Below, piece after piece: positions 1 through 24,541 of a stretch of DNA of 64,000 nucleotides (position 1 is its first letter; each line of letters begins with the position of its first letter). The stretch is from the NCBI GenBank assembly GCA_038227105.1, contig JBBRQB010000002.1:7983-71982 (forward strand), read 5' to 3'. A model generated the notes under the pieces. It saw only the letters and a list, made by a program, of their open reading frames with translations, was not told the origin of the DNA and searched no databases. A program made the translations under genes and the position numbers. Source of the DNA: Candidatus Limnocylindria bacterium. GTDB lineage: Bacteria > Chloroflexota > Limnocylindria > P2-11E.

Positions 1-967
1 CCTTCGCCGCTGCCGAGAGGCGTGAGCCCTGGATGACCACCATGCCGATCGCGCCGTAATCGAAGCGGCCCTCGAAGCCGATCCGGCCGAGCGTCGCGAA
101 CCCCACGGCGACGCCGATGCCGAGCCCGAGGTCGTGGCCGCGCTTGCGCCAGCCGGCCTCGAGCTCCGCGAAGCGCTCCTGCATGGCGACCGCCATTCGC
201 GTCGCCTGGAGCTGCGGCTCCGGGATCTCGACCGGGTCGTTGAAGAACACCATGATCCCGTCGCCGGCGAAGTGCTCGACAGTGCCCTCGTGACGGAAGA
301 TGACCTCACCCATGGCCGCCTGGTACGCGCGGAGCACCCCGAGCGCCTCCTCCGGCTCCGCGGTCTCGGAGAAGGCCGTGAACCCGCGCAGGTCCGCGAA
401 CACGACCGTGATCTCGCGGCGGTGGCCGTCCAGCAGTGCGTCGCCGCCGGTGGACATGACGAGCTCTGCGATCTGCGGCGACAGGAAACGGCGTAGCCGG
501 CCGAGGCGGCCGAGCTCGTCCACCTGCTCCTGCACACGTTGCTCGAGCGTGCGGTTCCACTCCGCGAGCTCGACCTTCTGGCGCTCGCTCTCGTCGTGGT
601 ACGTCTTCACCCGGAGCAGTGACTTCACGCGCGCGAGGAGCTCGGGTTGGTCGAAGGGCTTCGCGATGAAGTCGTCGGCGCCGGCTTCGATGGCTTTCAC
701 CTTCTCCGGGAGACCGCTCGCCGTGACCATCACGACCGGCAGGAAGCTGGTCAGCGGATCAGCACGCAGCCGGCGGCACACCTCGTAGCCGTCGATGCCG
801 GGAAGCATGATGTCGAGCAGCACGAGGTCCGGCTTCTCGGTCAGCGTCTTGAGCAGCGCCTCCTCACCGGTCAGCGCGGTCACGACCTGGTAGCCGTTCG
901 GGACGAGCACGGCCTCGAGCAGCCGCAGGTTCTGCGGGATGTCGTCGACGGCGAGGATCTTGGTCAC
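1..967 (-). CDS. Response-regulator receiver fused to class III adenylate/guanylate cyclase (5' part; 3' end beyond window start)
   Basis: Own minus-strand translation from GTG at 967: VTKILAVDDIPQNLRLLEAVL...LVLLDIMLPGIDGYEVCRRL (REC) then ...REITVVFADLRGFTAFSE...FAGDGIMVFFNDP (class III cyclase motifs). No stop before position 1. GTG overlaps the TGA of the upstream CheY gene (GTGA). Absent from ORF track because truncated. Confidence 0.75.
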   Translation of the reverse strand, partial: MTKILAVDDIPQNLRLLEAVLVPNGYQVVTALTGEEALLKTLTEKPDLVLLDIMLPGIDGYEVCRRLRADPLTSFLPVVMVTASGLPEKVKAIEAGADDFIAKPFDQPELLARVKSLLRVKTYHDESERQKVELAEWNRTLEQRVQEQVDELGRLGRLRRFLSPQIAELVMSTGGDALLDGHRREITVVFADLRGFTAFSETAEPEEALGVLRAYQAAMGEVIFRHEGTVEHFAGDGIMVFFNDPVEIPEPQLQATRMAVAMQERFAELEAGWRKRGHDLGLGIGVAVGFATLGRIGFEGRFDYGAIGMVVIQGSRLSAAAK

Positions 968-1341
968 GGCTTTGGGTCGATGTAGCTGCGGACCTGGTCA
1001 GGAAAGCTCTTCACGTCGATCGGCTTCGCGATGAATCCATCGAAGCCGGCCTTGTCGAACCGCTCACGATCGCCGGTCATCACGGATGCCGTGAGCGCCA
1101 CGGTAGGGATGTGTTTCGTCCTCTCGTCCGCGCGGATGCGCTGCATGGCCATGATCCCGTCGATCCCGGGCAGCTGGATGTCCATCAGGATGAGTGCGGG
1201 CAGATGCTCGGCGCTCATCGTTACGGCGGTCTCACCGTCGATCGCCTCGACCGTGCGGAAGCCGTGGAATCGCAGCACGTCGCGAGCGAGCTTCATGTTC
1301 TTCTCGTTGTCCTCGACGATGAGGATCAGCTCATTGGCCAT
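964..1341 (-). CDS. Single-domain CheY-like response regulator (receiver only)
   Basis: ORF track 125 aa: ILIVEDNEKNMKLARDVL...LILMDIQLPGIDG...KPIDVKSF is a typical REC fold. The ATG is adjacent to the stop of the upstream HK (1342). Confidence 0.85.
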   Translation of the reverse strand: MANELILIVEDNEKNMKLARDVLRFHGFRTVEAIDGETAVTMSAEHLPALILMDIQLPGIDGIMAMQRIRADERTKHIPTVALTASVMTGDRERFDKAGFDGFIAKPIDVKSFPDQVRSYIDPKP

Positions 1342-4300
1342 TTAGGCTCCCTTCACCACGGGCAGCGTGACGGTGAACGTACTGCCTTTGCCCGAGGTGC
1401 TCTCGACCGTGATGGTGCCACCATGCAGCTCGACCATCCGCTTGGAGAGGGCCAGCCCGAGGCCGGTGCCCTCACGAGACTTTTCGGTCTGGTGTCCGGC
1501 CTGTGTGAACTCCTCGAAGATCCGCTCTTGGTCCTCGACGGCGATGCCGATCCCGGTGTCGTGGACGGCGAGCTGGATGTGGCCGTTCTGCTGGTCGGCG
1601 CGCAGCCGAACCGTGCCCCCGTCCGGCGTGAACTTCACGGCGTTCGCCAAGAGGTTCACCACGACCTGCTTCACCTTGCGCTCGTCGGCGACGACCTCAT
1701 CGAGCGCCGGCGCCATGTCGAGCTCGAGCTTGATCCCGTGACTCTGCGCCCGCTCTCGCACGAGGGTGACCGCGTTGTTCAACGCGGCCACGAGCGAGAA
1801 CGGCGCGAGCTCCAGCTCCATGCGACCGGCCTCGATCTTGGAGAGGTCGAGGATGTCGTTGATGAGCGTCAGCAGGTGTTTGCCGGATGAACGGATGTCC
1901 TCGAGGTAATCGGCCTGCTGATCGTTCAGCTCGCCGAACATCCGCTGCAACAGCACATCGGAGAAGCCGATGACCGCGTTCAGCGGCGTGCGGAGCTCGT
2001 GTGACATGTTGGCGAGGAACTCGCTCTTGTGCTGGTTCGCCACCTCGAGCTGCGCCGATTTCTCCTGGATCTCGTTGAACAGGCGGACGTTCTCGATGGC
2101 GATGGCCGCCTGACGAGCGAAGGATTCCACGAGGTCGATCTCGCGGTCGGTGAACGGTCGCACCTCGATGCGGACCAACACCAGGACGCCGAGCACGTCG
2201 TCACCGCGCAAGAGCGGCACGCCGATGCCGGTACGCGCACCGATCGCGACCATGCCGCGCGAATCCGCGACAGTCTCATCGGCGGTGACGTCGTGGATGT
2301 GGATCGTCCGTCGCTCGCGGAACGCCCGCCCCAGGACCGACGCGGCGTAGGTGATTTCCGCGACCGGGCCCCCCGATGTGGTGGCGTCCTCCGGTCGCCT
2401 CGACGCGACCAATTTGCCATTGCCGTCACGATCGGTCTGCCGGATCCAGCCGTACTCGGCCCGGCAGAGCGCGAGCGACTTGTCGAGCACCATCTCGAAC
2501 ACCGGCTTCAGGTCGAACGCGCTCTGGCTCATTGCCGCGAGGAGCTCCGCGGTCGCGGTCTGGCGCTCGAGCGCCTCCTGCGTCTCCCTGAAGAGTCTGA
2601 CGTTCTCCATGGCGATCGCGGCCTGTGTCGCGAAGGACTCAACGAGCTCGATGTCGCGCGTGGAGAAGGGATCTACCTCGCGCCGGCCGAGCTGGATCAC
2701 GCCGATGGGCTCACCGTCCTTCAGGATCGGTATCGCCAGCCGTGTACGGACGAGTCCCGCTTGCGCGCCCGACCGCAGCTGCTCGTCGAGTAGGACATCG
2801 GGTATGTGCACGGCCCTCCGGGTCACGACCGCTCGTTCCAGGGTGCTGGTCGCGACCGCCGGATCGAGCGTGCGTCGCACGAGGTGTGTCGCCGCATCGC
2901 GTGGCCAGTCTCCGGATGACGCGTCATAGAACCATTCGCCGCCGTCGCGCTGCCAGATGACCGCATGGTCGGCGCGGCATAGTGCGAGCGATGATTCGGC
3001 GATCGTCTGTAGCACCGGCCCGATATCGAACGCCGACCGGCTGATGACATCCAGCACGCTGCTCGTCGCGGTCTGGCGCTCAAGCGCCTCCTGCGTCTCC
3101 TTGAACAGCCGCGTGTTCGCGAGCGCGATGACCGCTTGATCCGCGAAGGTCTGCACGAGCTCGATCTGCCGCTCAGAGAACCCGCGGGGCTCGCGGCGGC
3201 GCAGGACGATCGCGCCCAGCGCCCGGCCGTCGCGCATCAACGGCGCGCTCAGGATGGCCCGCTGGCCATCCCCTCGGAGCGATATCGCCTTGCTGAGCGG
3301 ATATTCGTCGGTCGCGCGAACGTCCGCTATATGGATCGTGCGGCGCTCGACGATGGCGCGACCCGTGACGGTCAGCGAATCGATCGGCGTGCTGGTGGCC
3401 ATGTCGATCGGACCAGCATGGGCGGACGCGACTGCCTGGTCCCCTTGGACGATCATCACGGTGACGTCCTCAGCGCCTGCGAACCGCGCCGCGCTCACCG
3501 CGATCGCATCAAGGACCGGCTGGATATCGGTGGGTGATGCCGAAATGACCTTGAGAATGTCGCCGATGGCCATCTGACGCTCGAGTGCCTCACCGGTCTC
3601 GTTGAACAGCCGGGCGTTCTCGATCGCGATCACCGCCTGGTCAGCGAAGGTCTCCACGAGGGCGATCTGCTCGGCGGAGAAGGAATTCGCGCTCGTTCGC
3701 CAGAGGGCGATGACGCCGATCGATCGGCCTCCCGTGATCAACGGCACCGAAAGCAGGACCTTGAAGCCGCCGAGCCGTTTGGCGTCGGCGTAGGTGTACG
3801 TCGGGTCGGCGTCGACATCGGGGATGTGGACCGTGCGTCGCTCGGTGAACGCGCGACCCGTCGCTGAACCGAGGTTGTCGGACCTGATCGGGTTCTCGCG
3901 CTGCCATTCGCGCATGACATCCGCCCGGGGACCGAACGCCGCACTCATCGCGAGGAGCTCGCCATCAGCCCGGTAGAGGAAGCCGTTCTCCGCCTCGCTG
4001 AGGCGGGTCGCATGCGAGATGACGGTGCTCAGGAGGCCCTCGAGATCGAGGGCGGAACCGCTGATCGCCTTGAGGATCTCGCTTGTCGCGGTCTGACGTT
4101 GCAGCGACTCCTTCGTTTCGTTGAAGAGCCGGACGTTATCGAGCGCGATGACCGCTTGTGACGCGAATGTCTCGACCAGCTCCACCTCCTGCTCGCTGAA
4201 TGCACCCGGCCTGATGCGCCGCAGCTGGATCGCGCCAACGGCGCGCCCATCCTTGAGGAGTGGCGCAGCGAGGAAGCCGCGATACCCATGCTCGGCCGCG

Positions 4301-6780
4301 TACGCCTTCGCCTCGCCGAATTCGGCGTCGTCGAGGTCCTCCATGTCAGGCACGTTGTACAGGCGTCCTTCGCGGATGACGCGTCCGGTCACGAATCGAT
4401 CTGACAGCGGGAACACCTGCTTGGGTACGGCGAGCTTGCCATTGGTCGCAACGAGATCCACGTCGCCGTCCGCGCGAAGGAGGGCGACCGCGGCATCATC
4501 CGCGTTGCAGAAACGCCCGGCGCTCGCCGCGATCGTGTCGAGGACCGGTTGCACGTCGGTTGGTGAGCTCGAGATCACCTGCAGGATGTCGCTGATCGCC
4601 GTCTGTCGCTCGAGCGCCCCCTTCGTCTCGTTGAAGAGGCGCACATTTTCCAGGGCGATGACGGCCTGGTCGGCGAACGCGCGAAGCAGGTCCGCGTCTC
4701 GCTCACTGAATGCACCCGCGGTCGATCGCCGCAGCGCGATGCCGCCGATCGCGGTGCCTCCACGCAACAAGGGCGTGGCGATCGTGGCGCGGAAGCCAAA
4801 GCGACGCGACGTCTCTCGTAGCGCGGGGAATTCCGGGTCATCGAGGGTGTTCGCTGAGTGGATCGTCCGGCGCTCGAGAACGGCACGGCCCATCACGCTT
4901 GCCTGATCGGCCGGCCATAGCTCGTCCGGTCCCCGCAGCGGGATCGGCCCGTGATGCGCGCGCGTGCTGAACTGACCGTCGGCGTAGAGCGCGAGGAGCG
5001 CGTCCTCGCAGCCGCAGAACCGGACCGCATTGCGCACGATCGCGTCGAGTACCGGTTGCTGCTCGGTCGGCGAGCTCGCGATGACCTGCAGGATCTCGCC
5101 GAGCGCCGTCTGGCGCTCCAGCGACTCCCTTGTTTCGTTGAAGAGCCGCACGTTCTCGATGGCGATGACCGCCTGATCGGCGAAGGTCTCCAGTAGCGCG
5201 ATCTCCTTTTGCGAGAATGGGCGTGCGACCTCCCGGCGCGCCACGATGACCCCTATCAGCTGACCGTCGCGCGCGAGCGGCACCCCGAGGAGGGTGCTGT
5301 GCGGCGGCGCCTGTCCGGTCGCCCGCCGCTGGCCGCTGTATTCACCGTCCGCCGCCGTATCCGGGATCTGCACGCTTCGTCGTTCGAGAAGCACCCGGCC
5401 GGTCAGTGTCGCGCGCGTTGGCGCGATCGGATGCTCCTGCCAGTACGCGATGAAGTCCTCCCGGTCGGGGATCGCGCCGGCGTCCGCCAATAGGTGCGCA
5501 GCGCCGCCGTCGATGCCGAGGACGTAGGCGCTGTCGGCGCCGCAGAGCTGAACAGCGTTGTGCACGACCGCGTCGAGGACCGGAGCAACGTCCTGCACCG
5601 AGCCGCTGATCACCTTCAACAGGTCGCTCGTCGCCGTCTGCCGCTCGAGCGCTTCCTTCGTCTCGTTGAACAGGCGGACGTTCTCCATCGCGATGACGGC
5701 CTGGTCAGCGAAGGTCTCGACGAGCTTCACTTCGCTCTCACTGAACGGCTGCACCCGGTTGCGGCGTAGCAGGAAGGCGCCGATCACCACGTCGTCGCGG
5801 CGCAGCGGTACGACGAGCAGCGTGCGGGTCTCGGCCATCTCCTTCGGGATCCTGCCCAATGCGATATCCGTGGCGGACGTGGCCGCGTAGTACTCGTGCA
5901 GGCGGGTATCGGCGATATGGACGGAGCGCTTCGTCTTCAGCATCTGACCCATCCCGCTTTTCGGCGAGATCGGCGTCAAGGCGGGATCGAGCTGCTCCAC
6001 GGTCGAGCTCGCGACATTGCTGCGCATGCGACCGTCGATGCGGCTCACGGTCGCGTTGTCGGCTCCACAGATCCGCGCCGCACGCCCGGCGAGCATGCGG
6101 AGGATCGCGTCCAGATCGAACGCGGACCGGCTGATCGCCCGAAGCACATCCGCGGTCGCGGACTGCTGGTCGAGCGCCTCCCTCGTTTCTTTGAGGAGCC
6201 GCGCGTTCGCCATCGCGACCGCGAGCTGATCGGCGAACGTCTCGACGAGCGCGATCGTCCCCGGTTCGAAGCCACCCGGATCGTTGCGCGAGGTCAGGAT
6301 CACCCCGATCGTCTCGCCCCCGTGACGGACCGGCACGGCGAGCCGCGTCCGACGCCGTTCGGCGTCATGTAGCTTCGGCTCGGCGAGGATCGTGTCCGCG
6401 TAGTGGAACCGTTGACCGCTGAGGGCGGCGCGACCAAAGATCGTGCCGGGATCCGCTGTCACGCGGTCGCCGGGCTTCCCCGGAGCCTGCCCGTACGTCG
6501 CGGCAAGGACGTAGCCGTCCACGTCGCGCCGGATGAATCCGCCGTTGTCGGAGCCCGCGAGGCGGACCACAGCTCTCACGACCATATCCGCGACCGTGTC
6601 GATCTCCACCGTGGGATCGGCGAGGGCCCGCATCACGGCGCTCACGGCGTCCAGCTGCTTTCGCGCGTCGTCGCGCACCGCCGCCGCCGGCTTTGTCGAC
6701 GCCGTCAGCTTCTTGAGGGGCGCGGCCTTCTGTGCGGCGACCTTCGTGACCGCTCGCTTCCTGCCCGTCCCCGACCTCAC
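1342..6780 (-). CDS. Cytoplasmic multi-GAF sensor histidine kinase (~9 tandem GAF domains + HisKA + HATPase_c)
   Basis: ORF track 1812 aa. The linker motif [23 protein letters not shown] recurs 8 times between ~165-aa GAF units. C-terminus has [17 protein letters not shown] (H-box) and [18 protein letters not shown] (G2 box). No TM segments. GTG start at 6780 is 1 bp from the divergent neighbour's ATG, so the true start may be the GTG at 6678. Confidence 0.85.
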
Positions 6781-6781
6781 G

Positions 6782-8965
6782 ATGTGCGCAAGTATCGGCG
6801 CGCCGCAATACCCTTGCGCCGCGGGAGGGTGCTTGGATATCTGGCAGATCCTGCGCGACCGGCTCGACTACGCGTCGTTCGTCCCGACCCCGCTTCCCGA
6901 CGTGGAACGCGCCGATCTCCGGCGTCGCGACGGCTCGCCCTATTCGGTGCTGAAGAACCAGCGTGGGGACAAGGGCGCGGGCCGGTATCTGCGGCTCGAT
7001 GTGGCCGATGTCCAGCTCTACGAGCTGATGGATGGACAGCGTTCGATCCAGGACATCCTCATGGCGCACGTCGAGCGCAACGGCGTCTTCGCGCTGGATC
7101 GCCTGGCGCGCCTCACGGCGCAGCTCAGGGCGAACGGCTTCTTCGGCGAGGAGCCGCCGATGCTGTACGAGAAGCTGTTCGCGCGGCGCGCGATGCGCGA
7201 TCCCATCGCGCGCGCGTCGACCTTCCTCAAGCGGCTCGTCGTGTGGGACATCGCCCGGTGGTCGAACGCCGACCGCCTCGTGGACGCGGTGTACCGGCTC
7301 GGTGGCCGGCTCGCGTTCACGCGCGTCGGTGCCGTCGCGCTCGTAGCCTTCGGTCTGTACGGGCTCTGGACCTGGTTCGGTGAGGTGCGCTCACCGCGCC
7401 ATCAGCTCGCGACGATCGACGGCTCCTACGTACTGGGCATCCTCGCGCTCGTCCTCCTGCAGGTGGCGTCGATCTCGGTGCATGAGGCCGGTCACGCCCT
7501 CGCGATCCGGCACTTCGGGAGGCGCGTCCGACGCTTCGGCGTCGCGATGTATTACCTCTTCCCGTGCTTTTACGTCGACTCGACGGACATGGTCCTCGGC
7601 ACACGCGCGCAGCGGATCGTCGTGTCCCTCGCCGGGCCGTTCGCGGGCCTGACCGTCGCGTCCGCTTGCGCGCTCGTGGCGGCGGGGCAACCCGACACGC
7701 TCACCGGAAGCCTCATGTTCAAGGCCGCGAGCCTGTTCGTCTTCCAGTTCATCTTCAATCTCCTGCCGATCCTGGAGCTCGACGGCTACCACGTGCTCAC
7801 CGACGCGCTCGACGCGCCGTTCCTGCGCCAGCGGGCGCTCGGGTTCGTGCGCGGCGCGGCATTCGTGAAGCTGCGTCGTCGCGCCACATGGTCACGTGAG
7901 GAGGTCGGCCTCGCGATCTTCGGCATCACCGCGATCGTCACGTCCCTCGCGACGCTGGTGCTGTCGATCCAGCTCTGGCGTTCACGCATCGGTGTCGCAT
8001 CTCAAGAGCTCCTCGCCATCGGACCGGCGGGGATCCTCGCGCTCGCGCTGCTGGTCCTCGTCTTCGTCGGCCCGCTCGCGGTCGCGGTCATCGCGCGGGT
8101 GACCGGCACCGTGCGCACGACCGTCAACCTCGCACGCTCCCGCAGCCGCGCTGTGACCCAGCGCGAGCAGCAGGAGCGCGTCGCGATGCTCGCTCGCGTG
8201 CGATTCCTCGCGGGACTGCCAGGCCCGGCGCTCGTTGCGCTCGCGTCGCAGCTGGACATCGAGCACGCCGATGCCGGACGGACCGTGATCACCGCGGGCA
8301 GCACCGGCGACCGCTTCTACCTCGTGCGATCGGGCTCGCTGCAGGCCGTGGCCGTCGACGGCACGGTGCTCGGGACGATCTCGGCCGGAGAGGGCTTCGG
8401 CGAGCTCGCGCTGCTCGACGGAACGCCGCGGACCGCGACGGTCCAGGCCCTCGAGGACTGCGAGCTGTGGTCGCTCGACCGGCCGCACTTCCAGCGGTGG
8501 ATCCGTGACCGGTACGAGATCGCCGCGCGCATCCGCGCCGACATCGGCGCTCGGACCGCCCTCGCGGCCCTGCCGTTCTTCCGCGATCTGGAGGGCCGCG
8601 AGCTCGACGCCACTGCCGCGCGCCTGCAGGCCCGGCGGTACGAAGACGGTGACGTCGTGATCCAGGCGGGAGAAAGTGGCGGCGGCTATTACCTGATCCG
8701 CGAGGGCACGGCCGACGTGGCCCTCCCGGACGGCCGGCACGTGCGCACCCTCGGCCCCGGCGACGGCTTCGGGGAGCTCGCGCTCATCTTCGGGACGCCG
8801 CGCACGGCGACGGTCACGGCGAAGGGCCCACTGGTCGTCGGAGTGCTCGGACGGTCTGATTTCGCGGCGCTTGTAACTGCGTCAGGCGAAACGATGGGTG
8901 AATTCCGCCGCAGGACGGGCCATTATGTCGGGGCTGGCCTTGGCGGGGCCGTTGGGGGAGCGTAG
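6782..8965 (+). CDS. M50/site-2-type intramembrane metalloprotease with N-terminal PqqD/RRE-like domain and two C-terminal cyclic-nucleotide-binding domains
   Basis: ORF track frame 6533..8965. [13 protein letters not shown] (HExxH) in a hydrophobic segment plus [12 protein letters not shown] (M50 NxxPxxxxDG motif). N-terminal [53 protein letters not shown] resembles PqqD/RRE. Two cNMP-binding units ([10 protein letters not shown]...[21 protein letters not shown] and [10 protein letters not shown]...[21 protein letters not shown]). Start uncertain: ATG 6782, TTG 6833 (after GGGAGGG) or ATG 7028. Confidence 0.8.
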
Positions 8966-9181
8966 GTGGACTGTTGGACCTGTGAGCGCCCGGCACTCGC
9001 GGCATGCCGGTTCTGTGGCCGCGGCGCCTGCCGGGAGCACGCGCGGAGCCATCCCTTCGTCCTCGACGTCTTGCGTGGCACCCGGCATCAGGGGCTGCGG
9101 GCCCTCGTCGTGGAGGACGCCGTCCATTGCGGCGTCTGCCGGCCCCGGAGCGAGCCGGTCGACATGCCCGAGCTGGAATAG
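8966..9181 (+). CDS. Small Cys-rich zinc-ribbon protein (DUF2180-like pattern)
   Basis: ORF track 71 aa: MDCWTCERPALAACRFCGRGACREHA...VHCGVCRP (CxxC x10 CxxC x4 C ... CxxC). GTG start immediately after the protease TAG (8963-8965), consistent with translational coupling. Confidence 0.55.
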   Translation: MDCWTCERPALAACRFCGRGACREHARSHPFVLDVLRGTRHQGLRALVVEDAVHCGVCRPRSEPVDMPELE

Positions 9182-9303
9182 GGGAGGCGCAGTGGGGAAC
9201 GTCATCCAGAGCACGTAGCGGGCGTGCCGGCGTGTATCGAGCGGCAGGTCCGCTCGGCGCAGGCTCCCTTCAACACACACGCGGAGAAAAAGGAGCAACG
9301 GCG

Positions 9304-10278
9304 ATGGCTAGCAAGAACCTTGGCGCGGTGATCCAGCGGGCGATCAGCGACGGGGCGTTCCGTCGCCAGCTTCAGGCCGACCCGGCCGCGGCGCTCCGCG
9401 GCTTCAACCTGACACCCGACGAGATCGCGGCGGTCCGGAGCGGCGACTCGAGCCGGCTCATGTCGCTCGGTGTCGACTCGCGGATGAGCAAAGCATTCAC
9501 CGTCGGCGGCGCGGCACTCGAGAACCCGTCGCGCGCCGCGCTGAGCGACGTCTCGGGCAACACCTCGAGCGCGCTCACGGGCGACAACACCTCGGGTGCT
9601 CGCGAGGGCCTCGCCAGCGACCAGACCACCGGTGCGCGCGCCGCATCGAGCGACGGTCAGAACTCCGGCGCTCCGGCCTCAGGAGCTCGCGCCACGATCA
9701 GCGACGGCCAGACCAGCGGCTCGGTGCACGAGGGTGCGCGGGCCAGCGTCTCGGCCCCACAGGGCGACGCGTACCGCGCCGTCAACGACCCGGACAGCAG
9801 CGGTGGCTCGCGCGCCGCGATCGGCGACCCGACGGCCGCCGGCACGCACTCGAGCATCACCGCCCCACAGGGCGACGCGTATCGCGCCGTCAACGACCCG
9901 GACAGCACCGCTGGCTCGCGCGCCGCGATCGCCGACCCGACGGCCGCCGGCACGCACTCGAGCATCACCGCCCCGCAGGGCGACGCGTACCGCGCGGTCA
10001 ACGACCCGGACAACACCAGCGGGACGCGCGAGTCGGTCTCGGCACCGCAGGGCGACGCGTACCGCCCGATCCACGACCCAGACAACGACTCGGTCGCAAG
10101 CCGGATGCAGGACACGAACACCGCCCTGCCGGGCAGCGACGTGCAGCACGACCCCGGCTTCGTCGACAGCCACAGCGCGTTCGTTCCAAGCGACTCGGCC
10201 GACGCGCAGCGCGAGCTGCTCGACGCCCAGCACCACGGCGACGCCCTTGGCGACACCGGCCACGGCATCAACTCCTAG
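9304..10278 (+). CDS. Repeat protein with N-terminal nitrile-hydratase/Nif11-like leader-type domain and 36-aa tandem repeats
   Basis: ATG 9304 preceded by AAGGAG (9290-9295). The longer ORF-track start at 9004 gives Arg-rich junk and is rejected. N-terminus MASKNLGAVIQRAISDGAFRRQLQADPAAALRGFNLTPDEIAAV matches the NHLP/Nif11 leader helix pattern. Then a Ser/Gly/Ala/Asp-rich region and repeats APQGDAYRAVNDPDSxGSRAAIxDPTAAGTHSSIT. Confidence 0.7.
   Translation: MASKNLGAVIQRAISDGAFRRQLQADPAAALRGFNLTPDEIAAVRSGDSSRLMSLGVDSRMSKAFTVGGAALENPSRAALSDVSGNTSSALTGDNTSGAREGLASDQTTGARAASSDGQNSGAPASGARATISDGQTSGSVHEGARASVSAPQGDAYRAVNDPDSSGGSRAAIGDPTAAGTHSSITAPQGDAYRAVNDPDSTAGSRAAIADPTAAGTHSSITAPQGDAYRAVNDPDNTSGTRESVSAPQGDAYRPIHDPDNDSVASRMQDTNTALPGSDVQHDPGFVDSHSAFVPSDSADAQRELLDAQHHGDALGDTGHGINS
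9754..10089 (+). repeat. Tandem in-frame 108-bp (36-aa) repeats, 2 full + 2 partial copies, inside the 9304..10278 CDS
   Basis: DNA unit gccccacagggcgacgcgtaccgcgccgtcaacgacccggacagc... recurs at 9754, 9862, 9970 and 10042 (the last two truncated). Confidence 0.85.
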
Positions 10279-10307
10279 ACCAGCGCGCACCCTCCACGTC
10301 CGCGGAA

Positions 10308-10340
10308 GCGGCCCCCTCACCGGGGCCGCTTTCGTTTGCT
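10308..10340. terminator. Intrinsic terminator hairpin between convergent genes
   Basis: GCGGCCCC-ctcacc-GGGGCCGC followed by tttcgtttgct. Sits between the repeat-protein stop (10278) and the CRP-gene stop (10342). Confidence 0.7.
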
Positions 10341-10341
10341 C

Positions 10342-11013
10342 CTAGTAGCGGATGTCGCCCTGCAGGACGGCGCGGTCCTTCAGGGCGAGGTTGCGGCGGC
10401 CGATCTTGATCGCGCCGCGCTTCTCGAGGTCGGCGAGGACGCGGTTCACCGACACGCGGGTCGCTCCGACGAAGCCGGCGAGATCCTCCTGGGTCATGTC
10501 GATCTGATCCGTGCCCGAGGCTTCCGCGAGATCCAGCAGGCACTTCGCGACCCTCCCCGGGAGGTCCAGGAACACGAGGTCTTCCACGTGGCCGGTGCTC
10601 CGGCGGACGGTCTTCACCAGGAGCGCCAGCATCCGGCGCATCGCGTCAGGGTTCCGCTCGAGCGTCCCGATGAATTCCTGCCGCGCGAGTGCCAGCGTGT
10701 GGGTCTCGGTGATCGCCGTCACCGTGGCGGATCGCGGGCCGTCGTCGAACAGCGCGAGCTCGCCGAAGACGTCACCGCCGCGCTCGAGCGCGACCACGAC
10801 CTCGCGGCCCTGCTCGTCCGGCACGCTGACCTTCACGGTGCCCGAGGTGATCAGGAAGACCTGCCCGGCCGGGTCGTCGTTGTGGAAGATGACCTCGTCC
10901 CGTGCGAAGTGCCGCGGGCGCATCTTGCCGGCCAAGGCCAGCCGGTCCGCTGGGCTGAGACAGGCGAAGAGCGGGCTTTCACCCAGGTAGTCGGCGACCG
11001 CAGCGGTATCCAC
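10342..11013 (-). CDS. CRP/FNR family transcriptional regulator (cNMP-binding + HTH)
   Basis: ORF track 223 aa: FHNDDPAGQVFLITSGTVKV...GDVFGELALFDDGPRSATVTAITE (cNMP-binding) and C-terminal EDLAGFVGATRVSVNRVLADLEKRG (HTH). GTG start. Confidence 0.9.
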   Translation of the reverse strand: MDTAAVADYLGESPLFACLSPADRLALAGKMRPRHFARDEVIFHNDDPAGQVFLITSGTVKVSVPDEQGREVVVALERGGDVFGELALFDDGPRSATVTAITETHTLALARQEFIGTLERNPDAMRRMLALLVKTVRRSTGHVEDLVFLDLPGRVAKCLLDLAEASGTDQIDMTQEDLAGFVGATRVSVNRVLADLEKRGAIKIGRRNLALKDRAVLQGDIRY

Positions 11014-11160
11014 GTGCGCTGAATAGTGCGTCTGGGGTCAAGGCATCGCCTGACGCACTCAGACCGTTACACGGAGCAATGGCCGAGCGCGTCCCAGCGA
11101 GCGGTACCGCTTGGGCGCCGCCGCGATGCTGCCATCAACGAAACGCGAATGGGGGCCGAC

Positions 11161-11313
11161 ATGAACACGTTCCTCAAGGACCTCGGTGAGGCGCTCGCGT
11201 GGATCTGGATGACGCCGGACGGGGCCTGTCTGCTGCTCGACGGTCGCCGCGAGGGTGCCTACGCGGTGGTCGACATCTCGCTCGCAACGCAGCCGGCGCG
11301 CATCGCCGCGTAG
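11161..11313 (+). CDS. Possible small ORF (50 aa) in the CRP / LLM intergenic region
   Basis: MNTFLKDLGEALAWIWMTPDGACLLLDGRREGAYAVVDISLATQPARIAA (alternative ATG at 11149). No recognisable family. Weak. Confidence 0.25.
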   Translation: MNTFLKDLGEALAWIWMTPDGACLLLDGRREGAYAVVDISLATQPARIAA

Positions 11314-11343
11314 ACCGCCTCGCGCCCCGCTATGGGTGAGAGC

Positions 11344-12282
11344 TCACCGCTGGCCAGCGAGCTCCAGGAACCGCGGCTTCACCTCGGTCATCGTCCGTTC
11401 GATCGTCTCGCGGTCGTAGGGCGGGGACATCCCGAACAGGAAGCCTTTCACGCCGATCCGGTGGTACTCGACGAGCTTCTTCGCGATCTCGTCCGGTGAC
11501 CCCAGGACCGCCGGCCGGTTCGGCGCCTCGACCTTGTTCCGCGTCGCGACCTCGCGCATGCGCTTGTCGACGTCGTTGAGGTCGTCGCGGACAAGGATGC
11601 CGCCGCCGCCGGTCGGGGCGATCTCGTTGTAGTCGCGGCCCACGTCCGCGCAGTGCTTCTTCAGCACCTCGAGTTTGTGCTTGATCACATCGGGTGTGCC
11701 GAAGCCGTGCCACCAGTCGGCGTAGCGCGCGGTGATCTTCAGCGTTACCTGCTCGCCGCCACCGCCGATGAGGATCGGCAGGCGCTTCTGGACCGGGCGG
11801 GTACCCAGCGTCGCGTCCTCGAGCTGGTAGTACTTGCCGTGGTACGTCATCGTGCCCTCGTCGAGCAGGACGCGGTTGATGCGTGTCGCCTCACGTAGCT
11901 TCGCGAGCCGGATCGCGGGCGTGTCGAAGTCGATCCCATACATCTTGTGCTCGTGCTCGTTCCAGGCCGCGCCGATGCCGAGCACCGCGCGGCCGTGGCT
12001 GATGTTGTCGAGGGTCGATGCCATGTTCGCGAGCACGGCGGGGTAGCGATACGTGTTTCCACTGACGAGCATCCCGATGAGCGGCTTCGTGGTGATCGCC
12101 GCGAGTGCGGGCAGGATCTGCCAGCCCTCGAGGTTCGGCCCCGTGATGTCGCCCATCAGCGGCACGAAGTGGTCCCAGGTCATGAGGACGTCCCACCCGG
12201 CCTGCTCGGCGAGGAGCGCGGCGTCGCGCATCTCGTCCCAGGTCGTGTACTGCGGATGGAGCTGAAGACCGAAGAACGTCAT
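11344..12282 (-). CDS. LLM-class F420-dependent oxidoreductase (luciferase-like monooxygenase family)
   Basis: ORF track 312 aa: MTFFGLQLHPQYTTWDE...DVLMTWDHFVPL...ILIGGGGE are typical LLM motifs. Confidence 0.85.
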   Translation of the reverse strand: MTFFGLQLHPQYTTWDEMRDAALLAEQAGWDVLMTWDHFVPLMGDITGPNLEGWQILPALAAITTKPLIGMLVSGNTYRYPAVLANMASTLDNISHGRAVLGIGAAWNEHEHKMYGIDFDTPAIRLAKLREATRINRVLLDEGTMTYHGKYYQLEDATLGTRPVQKRLPILIGGGGEQVTLKITARYADWWHGFGTPDVIKHKLEVLKKHCADVGRDYNEIAPTGGGGILVRDDLNDVDKRMREVATRNKVEAPNRPAVLGSPDEIAKKLVEYHRIGVKGFLFGMSPPYDRETIERTMTEVKPRFLELAGQR

Positions 12283-12302
12283 GAGCTGCCTCCGAGCGTA
12301 TA

Positions 12303-13658
12303 GTGCGGACTCCGATGGCGCTCACGAAGGATCGCACCGACGTCGCCCAGGTCCTCGCCGACACGAAAAAGCACGTCCTCGTCAACTGGTCGGCGCAGGG
12401 AAATAGTTCGCCGCTCGTCATCACCGGGGCCGAGGGCGTGTGGCTCCACTCGGGTGACCGCCGGATCCTCGATTTCAGCTCCGAGCTGGTGAACTCCAAC
12501 CTCGGGCACGGCCATCCACGTGTGGTCCGCGCGATCCAGGAGCAGGCGGCGATCCTCAACTACGTCACGCCGGCGTTCACGACCGAGGCGCAAGCGACCC
12601 TCGCGCGCATGCTCGCGGACGTGACGCCCGGCGACCTGACCCGGACGATCTTCACGACGGGCGGCACCGAGGCCAACGAGAACGCCATCAAGCTCGCTCG
12701 CCTCGCGACCGGCCGGCACAAGATCCTCACCCAGTGGCGCAGCTTCCATGGCCAGACGCAGGGCGCGATGACGCTCGGCGGCGACAACCGTCGTTGGGCC
12801 AATGAGCCCGGCATCACCGGCGTGGTCCATTTCCTGAATCCCGATCCCTACCGCTCGCTCTTCGGCGACGACGCGCAGAAGGCGCTCGCGCACGTCGAGG
12901 AGGTCATCTGGTACGAGGGTCCGCAGTACATCGCGGCGATCCTGGTGGAGCCGATCGTCGGCACATCTGGCCTGCTCGTGCCGCCGGATGGATTCCTTCA
13001 GGGCCTGCGGACCCTATGCGACAAGCACGGCATCCTCCTCGTGTTCGACGAGGTCATGACCGGGTTCGGCCGGACCGGGAAGTGGTTCGCCGCGGAGCAC
13101 TGGAACGTGGCGCCGGACATCATGACCTTCGCGAAGGGCGTGACCTCGGGCTACGTCCCGCTCGGCGGCGCGATCGTGAACGAGCGCGTCGCGAAGCACT
13201 TCGACCAGAACGTCTACTGGGGCGGGTTGACCTACAGCGGTCACGCCCTCGCGTGCGCCGCCGGCATCGCGACGCTTGAGACGTACGAGAGCGAGGGATT
13301 GATCGGGAACTCCGACAAGATGGGCGACCTCCTCGGCCGCGAGCTCAAGGCGCTCGCCCAGAAGCATCCGTCGATCGGCGACGTCCGCGGGCGCGGACTC
13401 TTCTGGGGTATCGAGCTCGTGAAGGACCGCGGCACCAAGGAGATGCTCGAGCAGTGGAACGGTCCCTCGAGCGCGCTCGCGAACGCGCTCAAGGCCGCGC
13501 TGTTCAAGCGCGACGTGTATGTCTTCTGCCGCTGGAACATGCTGTTCGTCGCGCCTCCGCTCATCGTGACCGAAGACGAGCTGCGCATCGGCATCCGCGC
13601 CATCGATGAAGCGCTCGAGATCGCCGACCGCTACGCCAGCACGGGGAAGCTCGAATAG
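12303..13658 (+). CDS. Class III (omega-) aminotransferase, PLP-dependent
   Basis: ORF track 451 aa: SELVNSNLGHGHPRVVRAIQEQ...LVFDEVMTGFGRTGKWFA...TFAKGVTSGYVPLG (class III signature; the GFGRTG region). Confidence 0.85.
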   Translation: MRTPMALTKDRTDVAQVLADTKKHVLVNWSAQGNSSPLVITGAEGVWLHSGDRRILDFSSELVNSNLGHGHPRVVRAIQEQAAILNYVTPAFTTEAQATLARMLADVTPGDLTRTIFTTGGTEANENAIKLARLATGRHKILTQWRSFHGQTQGAMTLGGDNRRWANEPGITGVVHFLNPDPYRSLFGDDAQKALAHVEEVIWYEGPQYIAAILVEPIVGTSGLLVPPDGFLQGLRTLCDKHGILLVFDEVMTGFGRTGKWFAAEHWNVAPDIMTFAKGVTSGYVPLGGAIVNERVAKHFDQNVYWGGLTYSGHALACAAGIATLETYESEGLIGNSDKMGDLLGRELKALAQKHPSIGDVRGRGLFWGIELVKDRGTKEMLEQWNGPSSALANALKAALFKRDVYVFCRWNMLFVAPPLIVTEDELRIGIRAIDEALEIADRYASTGKLE

Positions 13659-13744
13659 CCGCCAGCGCCTCGCGGGTCCACTGGGGCATCAACCTGCCGG
13701 CACAGCACACCACCTGGCCCGAGCTCCGGGACACCGCGCTCCTC

Positions 13745-14611
13745 GTGGACCGCCTCGGCTTCGACTCGCTCTTCACCTGGGACCACTTCGTGCCGCTCGA
13801 CGGCGATCCGAAGGGACCGATGTTCGAGGCCTGGGAGCTGCTGGCAGCGTGGGCGGCGGTGACGAAGACGGTGCGCCTGGGGACGCTCGTCACCGGAAAC
13901 ACGTACCGGCACCCGCCCGTGCTCGCGAAAATGGCGGCGACGTTGGATCACGTGTCCGAGGGCCGCGCGATCCTCGGCCTCGGCGCCGCATGGCACGAGG
14001 CCGAGCACGCGATGTACGGCATCCCGTTCCCGAGCACGGGTGGCCGCCTCGCGCGGATGGACGAGGCTGCGCGCGTGCTCCGAATGCTGCTCGATGACCG
14101 CTCCTCCTCCTTTGAGGGCAAGCACTACCGGTTGAAGGACGCGGTCGCCGAGCCGAAGCCGGTGCAGAAGCGCCTGCCGATCCTCATCGGCGGTGGCGGC
14201 GAGCAGAAGACCCTACGGACCGTCGCGCGCTATGCCGACTACTGGCACGGCCACGGTGACCCCGCGGTGATCCGGCACAAGCTCGACGTGCTCGCGGCGC
14301 ACTGCGCCGAGATCGGGCGCGACGTCGCGGAGATCACGCCGCTCACGACGGTCCGGCCGGACCTGATCCTGCGTGACCGGAGGGCCGACGTCGAGGCGCA
14401 GCTCGAGCGCGTCCGGGTCCGCTCCCGCGCCACGGAGCCGCTCGCGATGAATGAGATCCACACGGTCGACGCGCTCGTGGAACGCTGCGCCGCGCTTTGG
14501 GCCGCAGGAGCACGCGGCTTCATCCTGTACGTCAAGGCGCCGTTCGACCACGAGACGATCGAGCGCATCGCGAACGAGGCCCGGCCGCGGCTCGAGGAGG
14601 TGATCGCATGA
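13745..14611 (+). CDS. LLM-class F420-dependent oxidoreductase (second paralog); N-terminus probably extends upstream
   Basis: ORF track 288 aa from GTG 13745. In-frame upstream translation (~13673..13744) RVHWGINLPAQHTTWPELRDTALLVDRL aligns with the N-terminus of the first LLM (MTFFGLQLHPQYTTWDEMRDAALLAEQ) but holds no ATG/GTG/TTG. Confidence 0.8.
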   Translation: MDRLGFDSLFTWDHFVPLDGDPKGPMFEAWELLAAWAAVTKTVRLGTLVTGNTYRHPPVLAKMAATLDHVSEGRAILGLGAAWHEAEHAMYGIPFPSTGGRLARMDEAARVLRMLLDDRSSSFEGKHYRLKDAVAEPKPVQKRLPILIGGGGEQKTLRTVARYADYWHGHGDPAVIRHKLDVLAAHCAEIGRDVAEITPLTTVRPDLILRDRRADVEAQLERVRVRSRATEPLAMNEIHTVDALVERCAALWAAGARGFILYVKAPFDHETIERIANEARPRLEEVIA

Positions 14612-15825
14612 CGACCGCCGTTCGCGCGACCACGCTCATCGACGGAACGGGCGCGGACCCGTCGCGCGGACGGTTCATCGTCATCGAGGATGGCGTGATC
14701 ACCAGGGTCGCCTCGGACGCGCCGAAGGGCGCCGAGATCATCGACACGGGTGATCTGACGATCCTTCCCGGGCTCATCGACTGCCACGTCCATCTCGCCG
14801 TAAGCCAGTGGAACCTGGAGCAGCGCCTATCGACCCCGAACAGTCTGAACGTCGCCATGGCTCTGGTGAACTCGCGCACGACCCTCGAGGCAGGCTTCAC
14901 GACGGTTCGCGACGCGGGCTTCACGACGCGCGGTGTGAAGATGGCCGTCGACCGCGGGATCTTTCCGGGGCCCCGCATGCGCATCGCGGTCGCGCCTCTC
15001 TCGCAGACGGGCGGTCATGGTGACTCGGTGATGCCATCCGGGGTGAACACCTGGCCCGCTGATCCCGAGAGGCCCTACGGCGTCGTCGACGGCGTGGACA
15101 GCGCGCGGCGCGTGACCCGCGAAATGCTGCGCGCCGGCGCGGACCAGATCAAGGTCATGACCTCAGGTGGGGTCATGTCCCCGAACGACGAGCCGACGGC
15201 GACCGGGTTCTCGCCCGAGGAGATCGCGGCCATCGTGTACGAGGCGCACGCCGCGGGCAAGACGGTGATGTCGCATGCGCAAGCGACCCAGGGCATCAAG
15301 AACGCCGTGTTCGCGGGCATCGAGTCGATCGAGCACGGCATCTACCTCGACGAGGAGGCGTGCGCGGAAATGAAGAGACGCGGCACGTACCTCGTGGCCA
15401 CGCTCATCGCGCCCATGTGGGTGCTTCGCCGCGCGGAGAAGGATCCGTCAGCGGTGCCGCCGTATGCGGTGCGAAAGTCCAAGGAGGTCATCGATGCCCA
15501 TCGGCAGTCGTTCCGGATGGCCGTCGAGTCCGGCGTCAAGATCGCTATGGGCACCGACACTGGTGTGGGGCCGCACGGCACGAACGCCGAGGAGCTCGCG
15601 GTCATGGTCGAGAACGGGATGACCCCGATGCAGGCGATCGTGGCCACGACGAAGACCGCCGCGGAGTGTGCGCGCGTCGACACGCTCGTCGGCACCATCG
15701 CGGCCGGCAAGCGCGCCGACATCATCGGCGTACGCGGCGATCCGCTCGCGAACATCGGCCTGTTCAAGGACCCGGCGTCCGTCGCGTTCGTGATGAAGGA
15801 CGGCGCTATTCACAAGCGGCCGTGA
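14608..15825 (+). CDS. Metal-dependent amidohydrolase family protein
   Basis: ATG 14608 overlaps the LLM stop (ATGA) and follows GAGGAGG. MTTAVRATTLIDGTGADPSRGRFIVIEDGVITRV...LPGLIDCHVHL...AHAAGKTVMSHA...ESIEHG (amidohydrolase HxH/His/Asp motifs). Confidence 0.8.
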   Translation: MTTAVRATTLIDGTGADPSRGRFIVIEDGVITRVASDAPKGAEIIDTGDLTILPGLIDCHVHLAVSQWNLEQRLSTPNSLNVAMALVNSRTTLEAGFTTVRDAGFTTRGVKMAVDRGIFPGPRMRIAVAPLSQTGGHGDSVMPSGVNTWPADPERPYGVVDGVDSARRVTREMLRAGADQIKVMTSGGVMSPNDEPTATGFSPEEIAAIVYEAHAAGKTVMSHAQATQGIKNAVFAGIESIEHGIYLDEEACAEMKRRGTYLVATLIAPMWVLRRAEKDPSAVPPYAVRKSKEVIDAHRQSFRMAVESGVKIAMGTDTGVGPHGTNAEELAVMVENGMTPMQAIVATTKTAAECARVDTLVGTIAAGKRADIIGVRGDPLANIGLFKDPASVAFVMKDGAIHKRP

Positions 15826-18363: not shown

Positions 18364-18375
18364 GAGGCGCTGAGT

Positions 18376-18807: not shown

Positions 18808-18836
18808 CGCGCCACGCTATCAGCGACACTTCGGAC

Positions 18837-19592: not shown

Positions 19593-19765
19593 CAGTACCG
19601 TTCCCTCAGCGTTCACCTCTCGCGCGCCGATCCACACGAGGCGTCGATATGGGCTCAGCGTTTCATCGAACGAGCGGACAGCGGACAGTTGCACGCCGCT
19701 CGCCCCTCGTTGTCACTGACTGGAGACTTCCCCTCGACCCACCGCTGACTCGATAGTGCGAAGGC

Positions 19766-24517: not shown

Positions 24518-24541
24518 CCTTCGAATGCTAGTGTCCGCGCG

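Follow-up and report, generated by a model that had tools for sequence, protein, structure and literature searches.

What decides, in a bacterium, when a peptide made on the ribosome is to be parted from its leader, and could that decision be taken by a second messenger acting on the protease itself? The question is posed by a locus at the left end of a stretch of 64,000 nucleotides from a Candidatus Limnocylindria bacterium (Chloroflexota; assembly GCA_038227105.1, contig JBBRQB010000002.1, positions 7,983 to 71,982 of the forward strand), which in its whole length is called the window here. Positions 1-11013 of it, with a G+C content of ~68%, hold seven genes, present as an earlier note on this DNA, made from the sequence alone, had mapped them. 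At their centre is an intramembrane metalloprotease of the M50 type that carries two cyclic-nucleotide-binding (CNB) domains at its C-terminus and, at its N-terminus, a domain resembling a RiPP recognition element (RRE; RiPP, ribosomally synthesised and post-translationally modified peptide). On balance the locus is probably a cyclic-nucleotide-controlled peptide-maturation module of RiPP type, a reading drawn from sequence and held here with modest confidence. The features on which the argument draws are the following (aa, amino acids; REC, receiver domain).

<1..967, minus strand: REC-cyclase, N-terminal 322 aa; the gene continues past the left window edge
964..1341, minus strand: CheY-like single-domain REC protein, 125 aa (Pfam Response_reg 2.5e-22)
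1342..6780, minus strand: GAF histidine kinase, 1812 aa, cytoplasmic (Pfam GAF x9, HisKA, HATPase_c)
6833..8965, plus strand: M50 (site-2-type) intramembrane metalloprotease, 710 aa (Pfam, NCBIfam, motif alignment)
6890..7147, plus strand: RRE/PqqD-like winged-helix domain of the protease, about residues 20-105 (profile, AlphaFold2, Foldseek)
7481..7495, plus strand: HEAGH zinc-binding active-site motif, protease residues 217-221 (alignment of homologs)
7757..7786, plus strand: second M50 signature NxxPxxxLDG, protease residues 309-318, with the third zinc ligand Asp (alignment)
8225..8947, plus strand: tandem CNB domains of the protease (Pfam cNMP_binding x2, 3.7e-41)
8966..9181, plus strand: Cys/His-rich small protein, 71 aa (invariant Cys/His; sub-threshold Pfam matches only)
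9200..9215, no strand assigned: degenerate CRP/FNR-type box CGTCA-N6-GCACG (aligned upstream regions of relatives)
9304..10278, plus strand: repeat-bearing, precursor-like protein, 324 aa (NCBIfam NF038399; TRF repeat)
9304-9489, plus strand: NHLP-clan/LigA-like leader of the precursor, residues 1-62 (NF038399, PDB 6lk7)
9754-10017, plus strand: tandem repeat in the precursor gene (TRF)
10304-10333, no strand assigned: GC-rich hairpin with a 12-bp stem, GGAAGCGGCCCC/GGGGCCGCTTTC (RNA fold; candidate bidirectional terminator)
10342..11013, minus strand: CRP/FNR-family transcription factor, 223 aa (Pfam cNMP_binding, HTH_Crp_2, Crp)

What kind of protease is it? Peptidase_M50 (PF02163) matches above its gathering score (44.1 bits against a cutoff of 27.2), and in an alignment of 23 homologs (28-56% identity) H217, E218 and H221 are nearly invariant, with N309, P312, L314, L316, D317 and G318 of the second M50 signature invariant or nearly so. 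The two motifs by which an M50 protease is recognised, HExxH and NxxPxxxLDG, both lie within hydrophobic segments. Six hydrophobic segments stand between the RRE-like and the CNB domains, which would put the two on the same side of the membrane, presumably the cytoplasm. In the C-terminus cNMP_binding (PF00027) takes in two stretches, with 139.4 bits, and the phosphate-binding cassettes of both are intact (GFGELAL…PRTATV). F522, G523, E524, R533 and A535 in the one cassette and F646, G647, E648, R657 and T660 in the other are conserved family-wide, among the same 23 homologs, in the pattern FGE[LI]AL…PR[TS]ATV, which argues that both domains are under selection. The Thr that follows the cassette Arg is found in cyclic GMP (cGMP)- and cyclic AMP (cAMP)-binding proteins alike. 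Site-2 proteases that are better known have a PDZ or a CBS domain as their regulatory module; here, to judge from the order of domains, tandem CNB appears to stand in its place. The description of the protein in the earlier note as an M50 protease with two cyclic-nucleotide-binding domains is borne out by the PF02163 score, the two cNMP_binding stretches and the conserved motifs. It starts at TTG 6833, behind the ribosome-binding site GGGAGG, in agreement with database homologs of 710 aa; relatives have ATG at this place.

Is the N-domain really of the RRE kind? The earlier note had staked this on a Pfam PqqD match, named beforehand as the test that could refute the claim, and here it was disappointed: PF05402 gave no match to the window protease at E<0.1, so the claim was checked by other routes, which upheld it. 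The best NCBIfam match of the protease is to the daptide intramembrane metalloprotease (E 3e-37, residues 64-429), and as it begins ~150 residues before HExxH the N-domain is included. When a profile of 16 diverse N-domains was compared with all PDB sequences, three of the five weak matches were classical RRE proteins, PaaA (5ff5), PqqD (3g2b, nearly full length) and TfuB1 (6jx3), at E 0.03-0.09; hhalign of N-domain against PqqD gave 75% probability and a pairwise E of 2.6e-5 over 80 columns, and two proteins retrieved by the N-domain profile themselves carry PF05402. The AlphaFold2 (AF2) model of the domain, built on a 61-sequence alignment, has a mean predicted local distance difference test score (pLDDT) of 83.8, with a core >90, and the topology β1-β2-β3-α1-α2-α3 (strands at residues 25-30, 36-42 and 51-55, helices at 57-64, 72-83 and 88-100). 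Foldseek places it best with TglI (8hci) and TbiB1 (5v1u/5v1v), a lasso-peptide RRE with its leader bound, at probability 0.99-1.0 and target-normalised TM-scores of 0.63-0.69. With daptide homology, PDB profile, predicted fold and Foldseek in agreement, the N-domain is accepted here as RRE-like.

What, then, might such a domain bind? The likeliest ligand to look at is encoded two genes downstream, and for its study, as for all that follows, 80 genomic loci (L001 and so on) were compared: 30 from Limnocylindria (61-84% identity) and 50 distant ones (31-37% identity), the latter drawn from Anaerolineae, Chloroflexia, Actinomycetota, Edwardsbacteria, Thermodesulfobacteriota and others. They were found with a six-sequence alignment of N-domain and M50 core as query, and neighbours were detected by scanning their six-frame open reading frames (ORFs) with hidden Markov models (HMMs) built from the window locus. 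The 324-aa repeat protein passes NF038399, 'Os1348 family NHLP clan', over residues 5-62 (64.3 bits against a cutoff of 40), and among PDB entries its leader matches 6lk7 (Os1348) at E 1.2e-5, along with SonA split-borosin precursors. The NHLP/Nif11-like leader that the earlier note saw therefore survives in its Os1348-type form: TIGR03793, the NHLP model it had proposed, stayed below cutoff (13.4 bits against 50.9) and Nif11 (PF07862) gave no match to the repeat protein at E<0.1. Frankia_peptide (PF14407) reached 34.2 bits on the window protein, below its gathering score of 48, and since it is precomputed for nearly all of the listed homologs the window protein stands on the borderline of that family. 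NHLP, Nif11, Frankia_peptide and related leaders have been assembled by ECOD curators into the LigA-like leader group (PMC12353581).

The leader ends in VDSRMSK, AFTVGG follows, and the post-leader region of 262 aa, acidic and rich in Ala, Ser, Gly and Asp, runs to a C-terminus of ...GINS. Tandem 36-aa repeats had been claimed for it and are indeed there: TRF gives a period of 108 nt (36 aa), 2.4 copies and a 94% match, and in the protein are four APQGDAYR-x-[VI]-[NH]-DPD units, the fourth a degenerate one beyond the TRF repeat, and four R-x-x-[NH]-D-P-D motifs. Homologs vary from 178 to 488 aa, and in Limnocylindria there is an acidic post-junction region of 150-480 aa whose tandem repeats differ by genome, their common theme being only a loose R-x-[IV]-x-D-x-x-P. 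The precursor evolves much faster than the protease (best database identity, to the closest non-identical protein, 67% vs 89%); its C-terminal tail (…GDALGDTGHGINS) is semi-conserved among close relatives. The Os1348-type precursors of distant loci are of 66-99 aa, in 1-4 copies, and consist of a ~60-aa leader that ends in a conserved LD[ED]R[IVL][ST]K and then a short variable tail, often hydrophobic (GKIVL, MRFWG, RRLWRG, SILGIFY, LCICDF, SCW and GPYW are examples). A leader that is kept while the remainder varies is what one would expect of a precursor. Conservation attaches to the leader/core junction, [LV]D-x-R-x-SK, and not to the repeats, and the earlier proposal that the protease 'releases the repeat units' finds no support; the long repeats are, as the comparison suggests, a lineage-specific, fast-evolving expansion. 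The double glycine of FTVGG was considered as a conserved cleavage site and ruled out, there being relatives without it. The junction motif LDERxSK holds Asp, Glu, Ser and Lys, the residues cross-linked by graspetide ATP-grasp ligases, so the motif might belong to a modified product and not only be a cleavage signal. L025 (4707-8190) and L030 (12395-13997) encode long precursors in two or three paralogs that differ in repeat type; of those in L025, two are situated past the CRP gene and have a CRP-like box apiece.

How widely do protease and precursor keep company? A HMMER search of 1.84 billion representatives gave 746 proteins at E<1e-30, and when architecture was counted in the best 150 of these representatives (50% clustering), N-domain, M50 core and CNB were found together in 115, which were of ~700 aa in 45 cases and of ~1100 aa, with an unannotated insert of ~400 aa, in 70. 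The insert, thus present in ~60% of the representatives, lies between M50 core and CNB and has no Pfam match; loci with it include L035, L036, L039, L052, L061, L069, L071, L072, L077 and L082. In the Limnocylindria loci the order of protease, Cys protein, one to three precursor genes and convergent CRP is constant. The CNB fusion is present in 42 of the 50 distant loci, and Os1348-type ORFs lie within 10 kb in 18 of them. RRE-M50 genes that have no CNB also stand beside Os1348-type precursors, in L040, L045 and L062, which supports the pairing of protease and precursor as such. A Pfam census of 272 further neighbouring ORFs, from which the module families had been removed, found no universal partner; repeated occurrences, confined to subsets of loci, were seen for M16 peptidases, B12/radical-SAM enzymes, RimK-type ATP-grasps, glycosyltransferases and M23 peptidases. 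The most frequent Pfam families in a second batch of neighbours were cNMP_binding, AAA_16 and Guanylate_cyc, and no sigma or anti-sigma gene recurred in the censuses. The comparison supports a linkage of protease, precursor, CRP and cyclic-nucleotide theme that would reach well beyond synteny, across Chloroflexota classes and into Actinomycetota and other phyla. The conservation of neighbourhood that the earlier note had asked after is to this extent real, the protease co-occurring with precursors, CRP and cyclases in distant phyla, with the amendment that its tightest partner is the Cys protein and not the precursor.

Some particulars of these neighbourhoods may be recorded, among them that the types of maturase added in distant loci differ. 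A RimK-like ATP-grasp is encoded in L034, L043, L044 and L047, a radical SAM protein in L040, L041, L043 and L045, and an M16 peptidase lies between precursor and protease genes in L042, L048, L063 and L072. L043 has two complete sets of protease, Cys protein and precursor (8453-12109 and 16788-20148), and two protease paralogs within 10 kb are found in L041 also (2-1108 and 9893-11329).

The 71-aa Cys/His-rich protein begins with a GTG immediately 3' of the protease stop codon. Among its 57 homologs, from which an 18-sequence alignment was drawn, C3, C14, C17, C22, H25, C55 and C58 are invariant and C6 is present in most; these are residues enough for two zinc sites, and the fold is putatively a two-zinc cross-brace or ribbon. 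The protein is conserved over its whole length and has no hydrophobic segment. Pfam yields sub-threshold matches only (C5HCH, DUF2180, B-box-like, AN1), that to DUF2180 (PF09947) being of 17.6 bits against 22.2, with 16 of 18 family members matching weakly at a best E of 1e-4; PDB matches, to NSD C5HCH fingers, are weak too, and a single-sequence AF2 model had a pLDDT of 56, too low for use. The zinc-ribbon ORF of the earlier note is accordingly present with conserved Cys and His, its DUF2180 assignment falling below threshold; together with PqqD this is where the domain assignments, nearly all of which passed their HMMs, came short. Homologs are encoded in 33 of the 50 distant loci, 23 of them at 0-90 bp from the protease gene and most others at 160-1430 bp, so that the Cys protein is the most constant partner that the protease has. 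Given this constancy and the translational coupling, it is read here as a subunit, adaptor or inhibitor of the protease. In public gene calls the ORF is given as 40 aa in L001 (12134-12349) and L002 (4180-4395). The region conserved across phyla (first CxxC…CxxC…CxxH) begins right after the protease stop, so that databases probably under-annotate the family or hold it in truncated form.

Is the precursor also tied to the cyclic nucleotide at the level of transcription? The gene converging on the protease, Cys protein and precursor unit has the full Pfam architecture of a CRP/FNR regulator, as had been claimed for it (cNMP_binding 83.1 bits, 1.4e-23; HTH_Crp_2 63.9 bits, 1.4e-17; Crp 40.5 bits, 2.2e-10). 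It has a counterpart in 10/10 Limnocylindria loci with >3 kb of downstream flank and in 11 of the 50 distant loci, frequently as the immediate neighbour of the precursor gene (L034, L042, L048, L057, L069, L072). When the 160 nt upstream of the Limnocylindria precursor genes were aligned and compared with the E. coli-type consensus TGTGA-N6-TCACA, the best match was at -93 to -110 from the precursor ATG in nearly all loci, as follows.

L024, L028 and L029: TGTGA-N6-TCACA, 0 mismatches (0/1000 shuffles as good)
L025 and L027: 1 mismatch
About half of the remaining loci: GGTTAGGTAGATCACA, 2 mismatches; single-base variants of it, 3
Window and L004: CGTCATCCAGAGCACG, at 9200-9215 in the window, 4 mismatches

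The window box, 104 nt upstream of the precursor ATG, is orthologous to the perfect boxes of relatives and, with its four mismatches, leaves the argument to rest on those relatives; the sequences thus suggest a CRP-precursor link that has good support across the family and less in this genome. In L001, L005-L016 and L019 the gap between kinase and protease genes is ~90 bp longer than in the window and L004, where it is of 52 bp (6781-6832 in the window), and the longer gap holds a conserved CRP-like box, CGTTACC-N-GGCAC, ~85 nt upstream of the protease start; a ~90-bp deletion would have removed this box from the window, with 52 bp left between the kinase and protease starts. A strong ribosome-binding site precedes the repeat-protein gene. 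Between the convergent precursor and CRP genes the earlier note had placed a shared terminator, and the GC-rich hairpin is found there, in an 81-nt segment (10270-10350) that folds at a free energy (dG) of -33.7 kcal/mol (z -3.8, 0/200 shuffles as good); a strict T-run scan for intrinsic terminators over 6400-11400 called neither it nor any other, and a strict sigma-70 promoter scan of the same interval found none.

From where would the nucleotide come? The minus-strand genes that diverge from the protease offer a candidate source. In the kinase Pfam finds nine GAF stretches, a HisKA domain (81 bits, 6.6e-23) with its phospho-acceptor His (H-box) and HATPase_c (111 bits, 5.4e-32), the make-up of a two-component histidine kinase. 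The GAF units are ~170 aa apart, and a near-identical linker ending (K/R)EALERQTAT recurs every 167-176 aa; in the gene no tandem repeat of the GAF array is detectable at the DNA level, and the protein has no transmembrane-like segment. The start at GTG 6780 is conserved in relatives. GAF-unit number differs widely among close relatives, the called kinase being of 1292 aa in L001 and 1812 aa in the window, with stop-to-stop ORFs of up to 2300-2500 aa in L006, L019 and L028, and ahead of the first GAF, at residues 1-40 (6660-6780, minus strand), is a Lys/Ala/Thr-rich tail like that of histone H1. The REC domains of the CheY-like protein and of the REC-cyclase score 97 and 80 bits (cyclase Response_reg 8.9e-28), and in relatives too the CheY-like receiver adjoins the kinase. 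Truncated as it is by the window edge, the cyclase matches Guanylate_cyc (PF00211) at 37.3 bits (cutoff 21.9; 2.8e-9) and so belongs to class III; its full-length ortholog in L001, of 370 aa, matches CyaB (3r5g) at 2e-33 over the cyclase domain, and Cya2 (2w01) and CyaC (1wc0) as well. In the window fragment, read by eye, the Lys and Asn positions among the catalytic and substrate-specifying residues (ATP versus GTP) may be non-canonical. The CheY stop overlaps the cyclase GTG start (GTGA) and the kinase stop abuts the CheY start, and with these boundaries and the Pfam domains the stop/start-coupled set of 9xGAF kinase, CheY-like REC and REC-cyclase stands as first described.

The operon is confined to Limnocylindria, where it is adjacent in 10 of 15 informative loci and in two arrangements, divergent as in the window or, in L025 and L028, co-directional and directly upstream of the protease; that adjacency is kept across both argues for more than inherited synteny. 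Elsewhere a cyclase was found in seven of the 50 distant loci, with flanks of up to 10 kb, always at most 2.8 kb from the protease gene and in four cases <250 bp from it, and these cyclases have other architectures, e.g., cyclase-AAA_16-TPR in L036, L058, L062 and L082. Most distant loci have no cyclase within 10 kb. As a neighbour of the module the operon is upheld for a part of Limnocylindria only, and elsewhere there are cyclases of other types or none.

How might the parts work together? According to the reading preferred here, the cytoplasmic RRE-like domain would dock the folded Os1348-type leader of the adjacent precursor, and the M50 core would then cut at or near the leader/core junction, in the window between VDSRMSK and AF. 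The two CNB domains would make that cleavage depend on cAMP or cGMP, and the translationally coupled 71-aa zinc protein would be an obligatory partner of the protease, be it as subunit, adaptor or inhibitor. CRP, sensing the same nucleotide, would drive transcription of the precursor via the CRP box, and the result would be a coherent feed-forward loop. In Limnocylindria a dedicated relay would supply the nucleotide, with the 9xGAF kinase phosphorylating the REC-cyclase and the CheY-like protein acting as phosphate sink or shuttle. The sequences themselves establish the domains, the intact catalytic and nucleotide-binding motifs, the RRE fold, the conserved neighbourhoods and the CRP boxes of relatives; binding, gating, cleavage and phosphotransfer we infer, as we do which nucleotide is used and what the product is and becomes.

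A number of findings pull the other way. No experiment stands behind any step of this signal flow, and the evidence for the N-domain includes, beside the silence of PF05402, PDB and Foldseek E-values for RRE-related matches that are each marginal (0.03-0.09). In 32 of the 50 distant loci no Os1348-type precursor was found within 10 kb, some but not all of the contigs being short. The precursor itself is soluble and far larger than typical RiPP precursors, and in Limnocylindria no modifying enzyme or exporter that would account for the fate of the 262-aa core adjoins the module. The CRP box of the window is degenerate, and the CRP consensus is not enriched in the window, with 91 matches against 118 expected. 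The kinase operon is missing in L020, L024, L029, L030 and L032, five of the 15 informative Limnocylindria loci. Chloroflexota may carry many cyclases, so some of the adjacency could be chance.

Could the protease be cutting something else altogether? With its zinc protein it might be a switch for regulated intramembrane proteolysis, in the manner of SpoIVFB or RseP, whose substrate would be, for example, the zinc protein or some membrane-anchored regulator with its gene in another place, the precursor being merely co-regulated through CRP. Site-2 proteases classically cleave regulators, and the zinc protein is a commoner neighbour than the precursor (33 vs 18 of the 50 distant loci), and 32 of these loci lack a detectable precursor; one family member of the Cys protein even matches, weakly, the anti-sigma-G inhibitor Gin. 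What makes this alternative quite improbable in our estimation is that the N-domain is RRE-like and its closest curated family a RiPP leader peptidase, that the neighbour censuses show no recurring sigma or anti-sigma gene, that the zinc protein is conserved along its whole length and has no hydrophobic segment, that Os1348-type genes are judged too rare to be present in 18/50 loci by chance, and that RRE-M50 genes adjoin Os1348-type precursors even where CNB is absent. A further alternative leaves protease and precursor paired only in appearance: the 324-aa repeat protein would be a stable, disordered acidic protein with a LigA-like dimerisation domain, a scaffold or an ion-binding protein, and the RRE would have another ligand. 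Few RiPP precursors would be as long, the crystal form of Os1348 is a folded dimer (PMC7726476), neither maturase nor exporter is encoded nearby in Limnocylindria and the C-terminal tail is semi-conserved. However, the orthologous positions elsewhere hold short precursors with the same leader and the same junction, the remainder of the protein, unlike the conserved leader, evolves fast and with changing length and repeat type, and the gene is linked to a protease that bears an RRE, so that this explanation too strikes us as quite improbable.

A third alternative concerns the relay. Kinase, CheY-like protein and REC-cyclase may form a general cyclic-nucleotide relay that lies next to the protease in one Limnocylindria subclade by inherited synteny. 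Close relatives do share even the downstream metabolic genes, a third of the informative Limnocylindria loci are without the operon and most distant loci have no cyclase within 10 kb. Yet the adjacency has survived rearrangement, from divergent to the co-directional, abutting position of L025 and L028; seven distant loci have cyclases of unrelated architecture at most 2.8 kb from the protease; one of the neighbour censuses is headed by cyclase and stand-alone CNB genes; and no other cyclase is present in the remaining 53 kb. On these grounds synteny alone is an unlikely explanation of the adjacency, with a substantial chance of being right nonetheless.

Should the maturation module be what it seems, what would follow? 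It may be, though we would put this no higher than an open possibility that falls short of being probable, that RRE-M50-CNB proteases and their zinc partner define a widespread class of second-messenger-gated peptide maturation, in which cAMP or cGMP would act both through CRP and allosterically on the protease. Short peptides, possibly signalling or antimicrobial, would then be released as a direct output of the cyclic nucleotide; what is set free in Limnocylindria would be a long, acidic, repeat-bearing polypeptide. It would be the first instance of a cyclic nucleotide governing maturation of RiPP type directly through the protease, would add a new type of regulatory module to the site-2 proteases, and would join cyclic-nucleotide signalling to ribosomal peptide natural products, fields with little contact so far; some silent RiPP-like clusters would find an explanation in the need for a second messenger. 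The conserved and often mis-annotated zinc protein of ~70 aa is flagged as a likely protease subunit, and the family amounts to 115 or more clusters at 50% identity, which bring with them short precursor peptides by the dozen. Even were the model mistaken, the locus would remain a clear case of cyclic-nucleotide genes clustered around an intramembrane protease.

The remaining 53 kb of the window hold no further cyclase, CNB or CRP gene. Downstream of CRP, at 11344-18363, is a cluster with F420-dependent LLM-class oxidoreductases (11344-12282, 13745-14611, 17344-18363), a class-III aminotransferase of PRK06062 type (12303-13658) and an Xaa-Pro-dipeptidase-like amidohydrolase (14497-15825), and this cluster is syntenic in L001. 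The genes of this cluster were considered as possible maturases and rejected; the oxidoreductases and the aminotransferase look like generic metabolic genes. At 22425-25711 on the minus strand, ~11 kb past the module, is a second histidine-kinase-like ORF with a weak receiver match, apparently unrelated.

How new, then, is the combination? The earlier note knew of no description of this architecture. RRE-bearing site-2 proteases and the leader family were already known; the fusion of CNB domains to the protease, its conserved partner, the zinc protein, and the recurring CRP and cyclase genes were not found in the searchable literature, which left out the 2009 Frankia_peptide paper and NCBI curator notes. 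The component parts are of known kinds, and it is their cyclic-nucleotide-gated combination that was not found described there. Among regulated intramembrane proteases, those of SpoIVFB type have a C-terminal CBS domain and a nucleotide-regulated proteolysis. The window protease is like them in its M50 core, in what would be a cytoplasmic C-terminal module for a small ligand and in having small accessory proteins encoded alongside, and differs from them by tandem CNB in place of CBS, by its RRE-like N-domain and by neighbours that are a precursor and CRP instead of a pro-sigma factor. The family name of TIGR03896, 'cyc_nuc_ocin', ties CNB to bacteriocin/RiPP export, and both protease and CRP match it weakly (40.5 and 32.6 bits), far below its cutoff of 161; its members are not proteases but CNB proteins that stand alone, encoded beside ABC exporters, and we know of no experimental characterisation of them. 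The epipeptide M50 protease YydH/LiaK (NF058609) also serves RiPP maturation and matches in part (68 bits, residues 220-343), below its cutoff of 225; it is without RRE or CNB and belongs with other precursors in the context of a radical-SAM epimerase.

On the side of the precursor the nearest known system is Os1348, from cluster OS3 of Pseudomonas sp. Os17, whose crystal structure, PDB 6LK7, is a folded dimer (PMC7726476). The window leader passes its family model, NF038399, and both fall in the folded, helical LigA-like group. Os1348 is of 85 aa, however, and is clustered with a GNAT protein, a soluble HExxH peptidase and a SagB-type dehydrogenase, whereas its counterpart in the window keeps company with an RRE-M50-CNB protease, a zinc protein and CRP and has as its 'core' a repeat region of 262 aa. 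Frankia_peptide (PF14407) was defined from ATP-grasp neighbourhoods (PMC8939145); no graspetide-type ATP-grasp ligase was found among the scanned window genes or in the annotation of the syntenic L001.

On the side of the protease the closest relative is the daptide leader peptidase, an RRE fused N-terminally to a site-2 protease and described as an 'RRE-dependent intramembrane peptidase' (PMC10036551). A daptide system as such was ruled out. The window protease scores 128.6 bits against the cutoff of 300 for MpaP (NF041824; Ren et al. 2023, PMC10036551) and has two CNB domains in addition at its C-terminus; the precursor is of the wrong type, NHLP-clan/Os1348 and without the ELExMEAP motif or a C-terminal Thr; the MpaB/C/D/M enzymes are absent, with no alcohol dehydrogenase or methyltransferase in the annotation of the syntenic L001; and the nearby aminotransferase is of PRK06062 type (578.9 bits, against 247.7 for daptide_amino with its cutoff of 450). 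What the window protease has in common with MpaP is the succession of an RRE-like N-domain and an M50 core and, presumably, the task to which the two are put, which is the removal of the leader from a ribosomal precursor encoded nearby.

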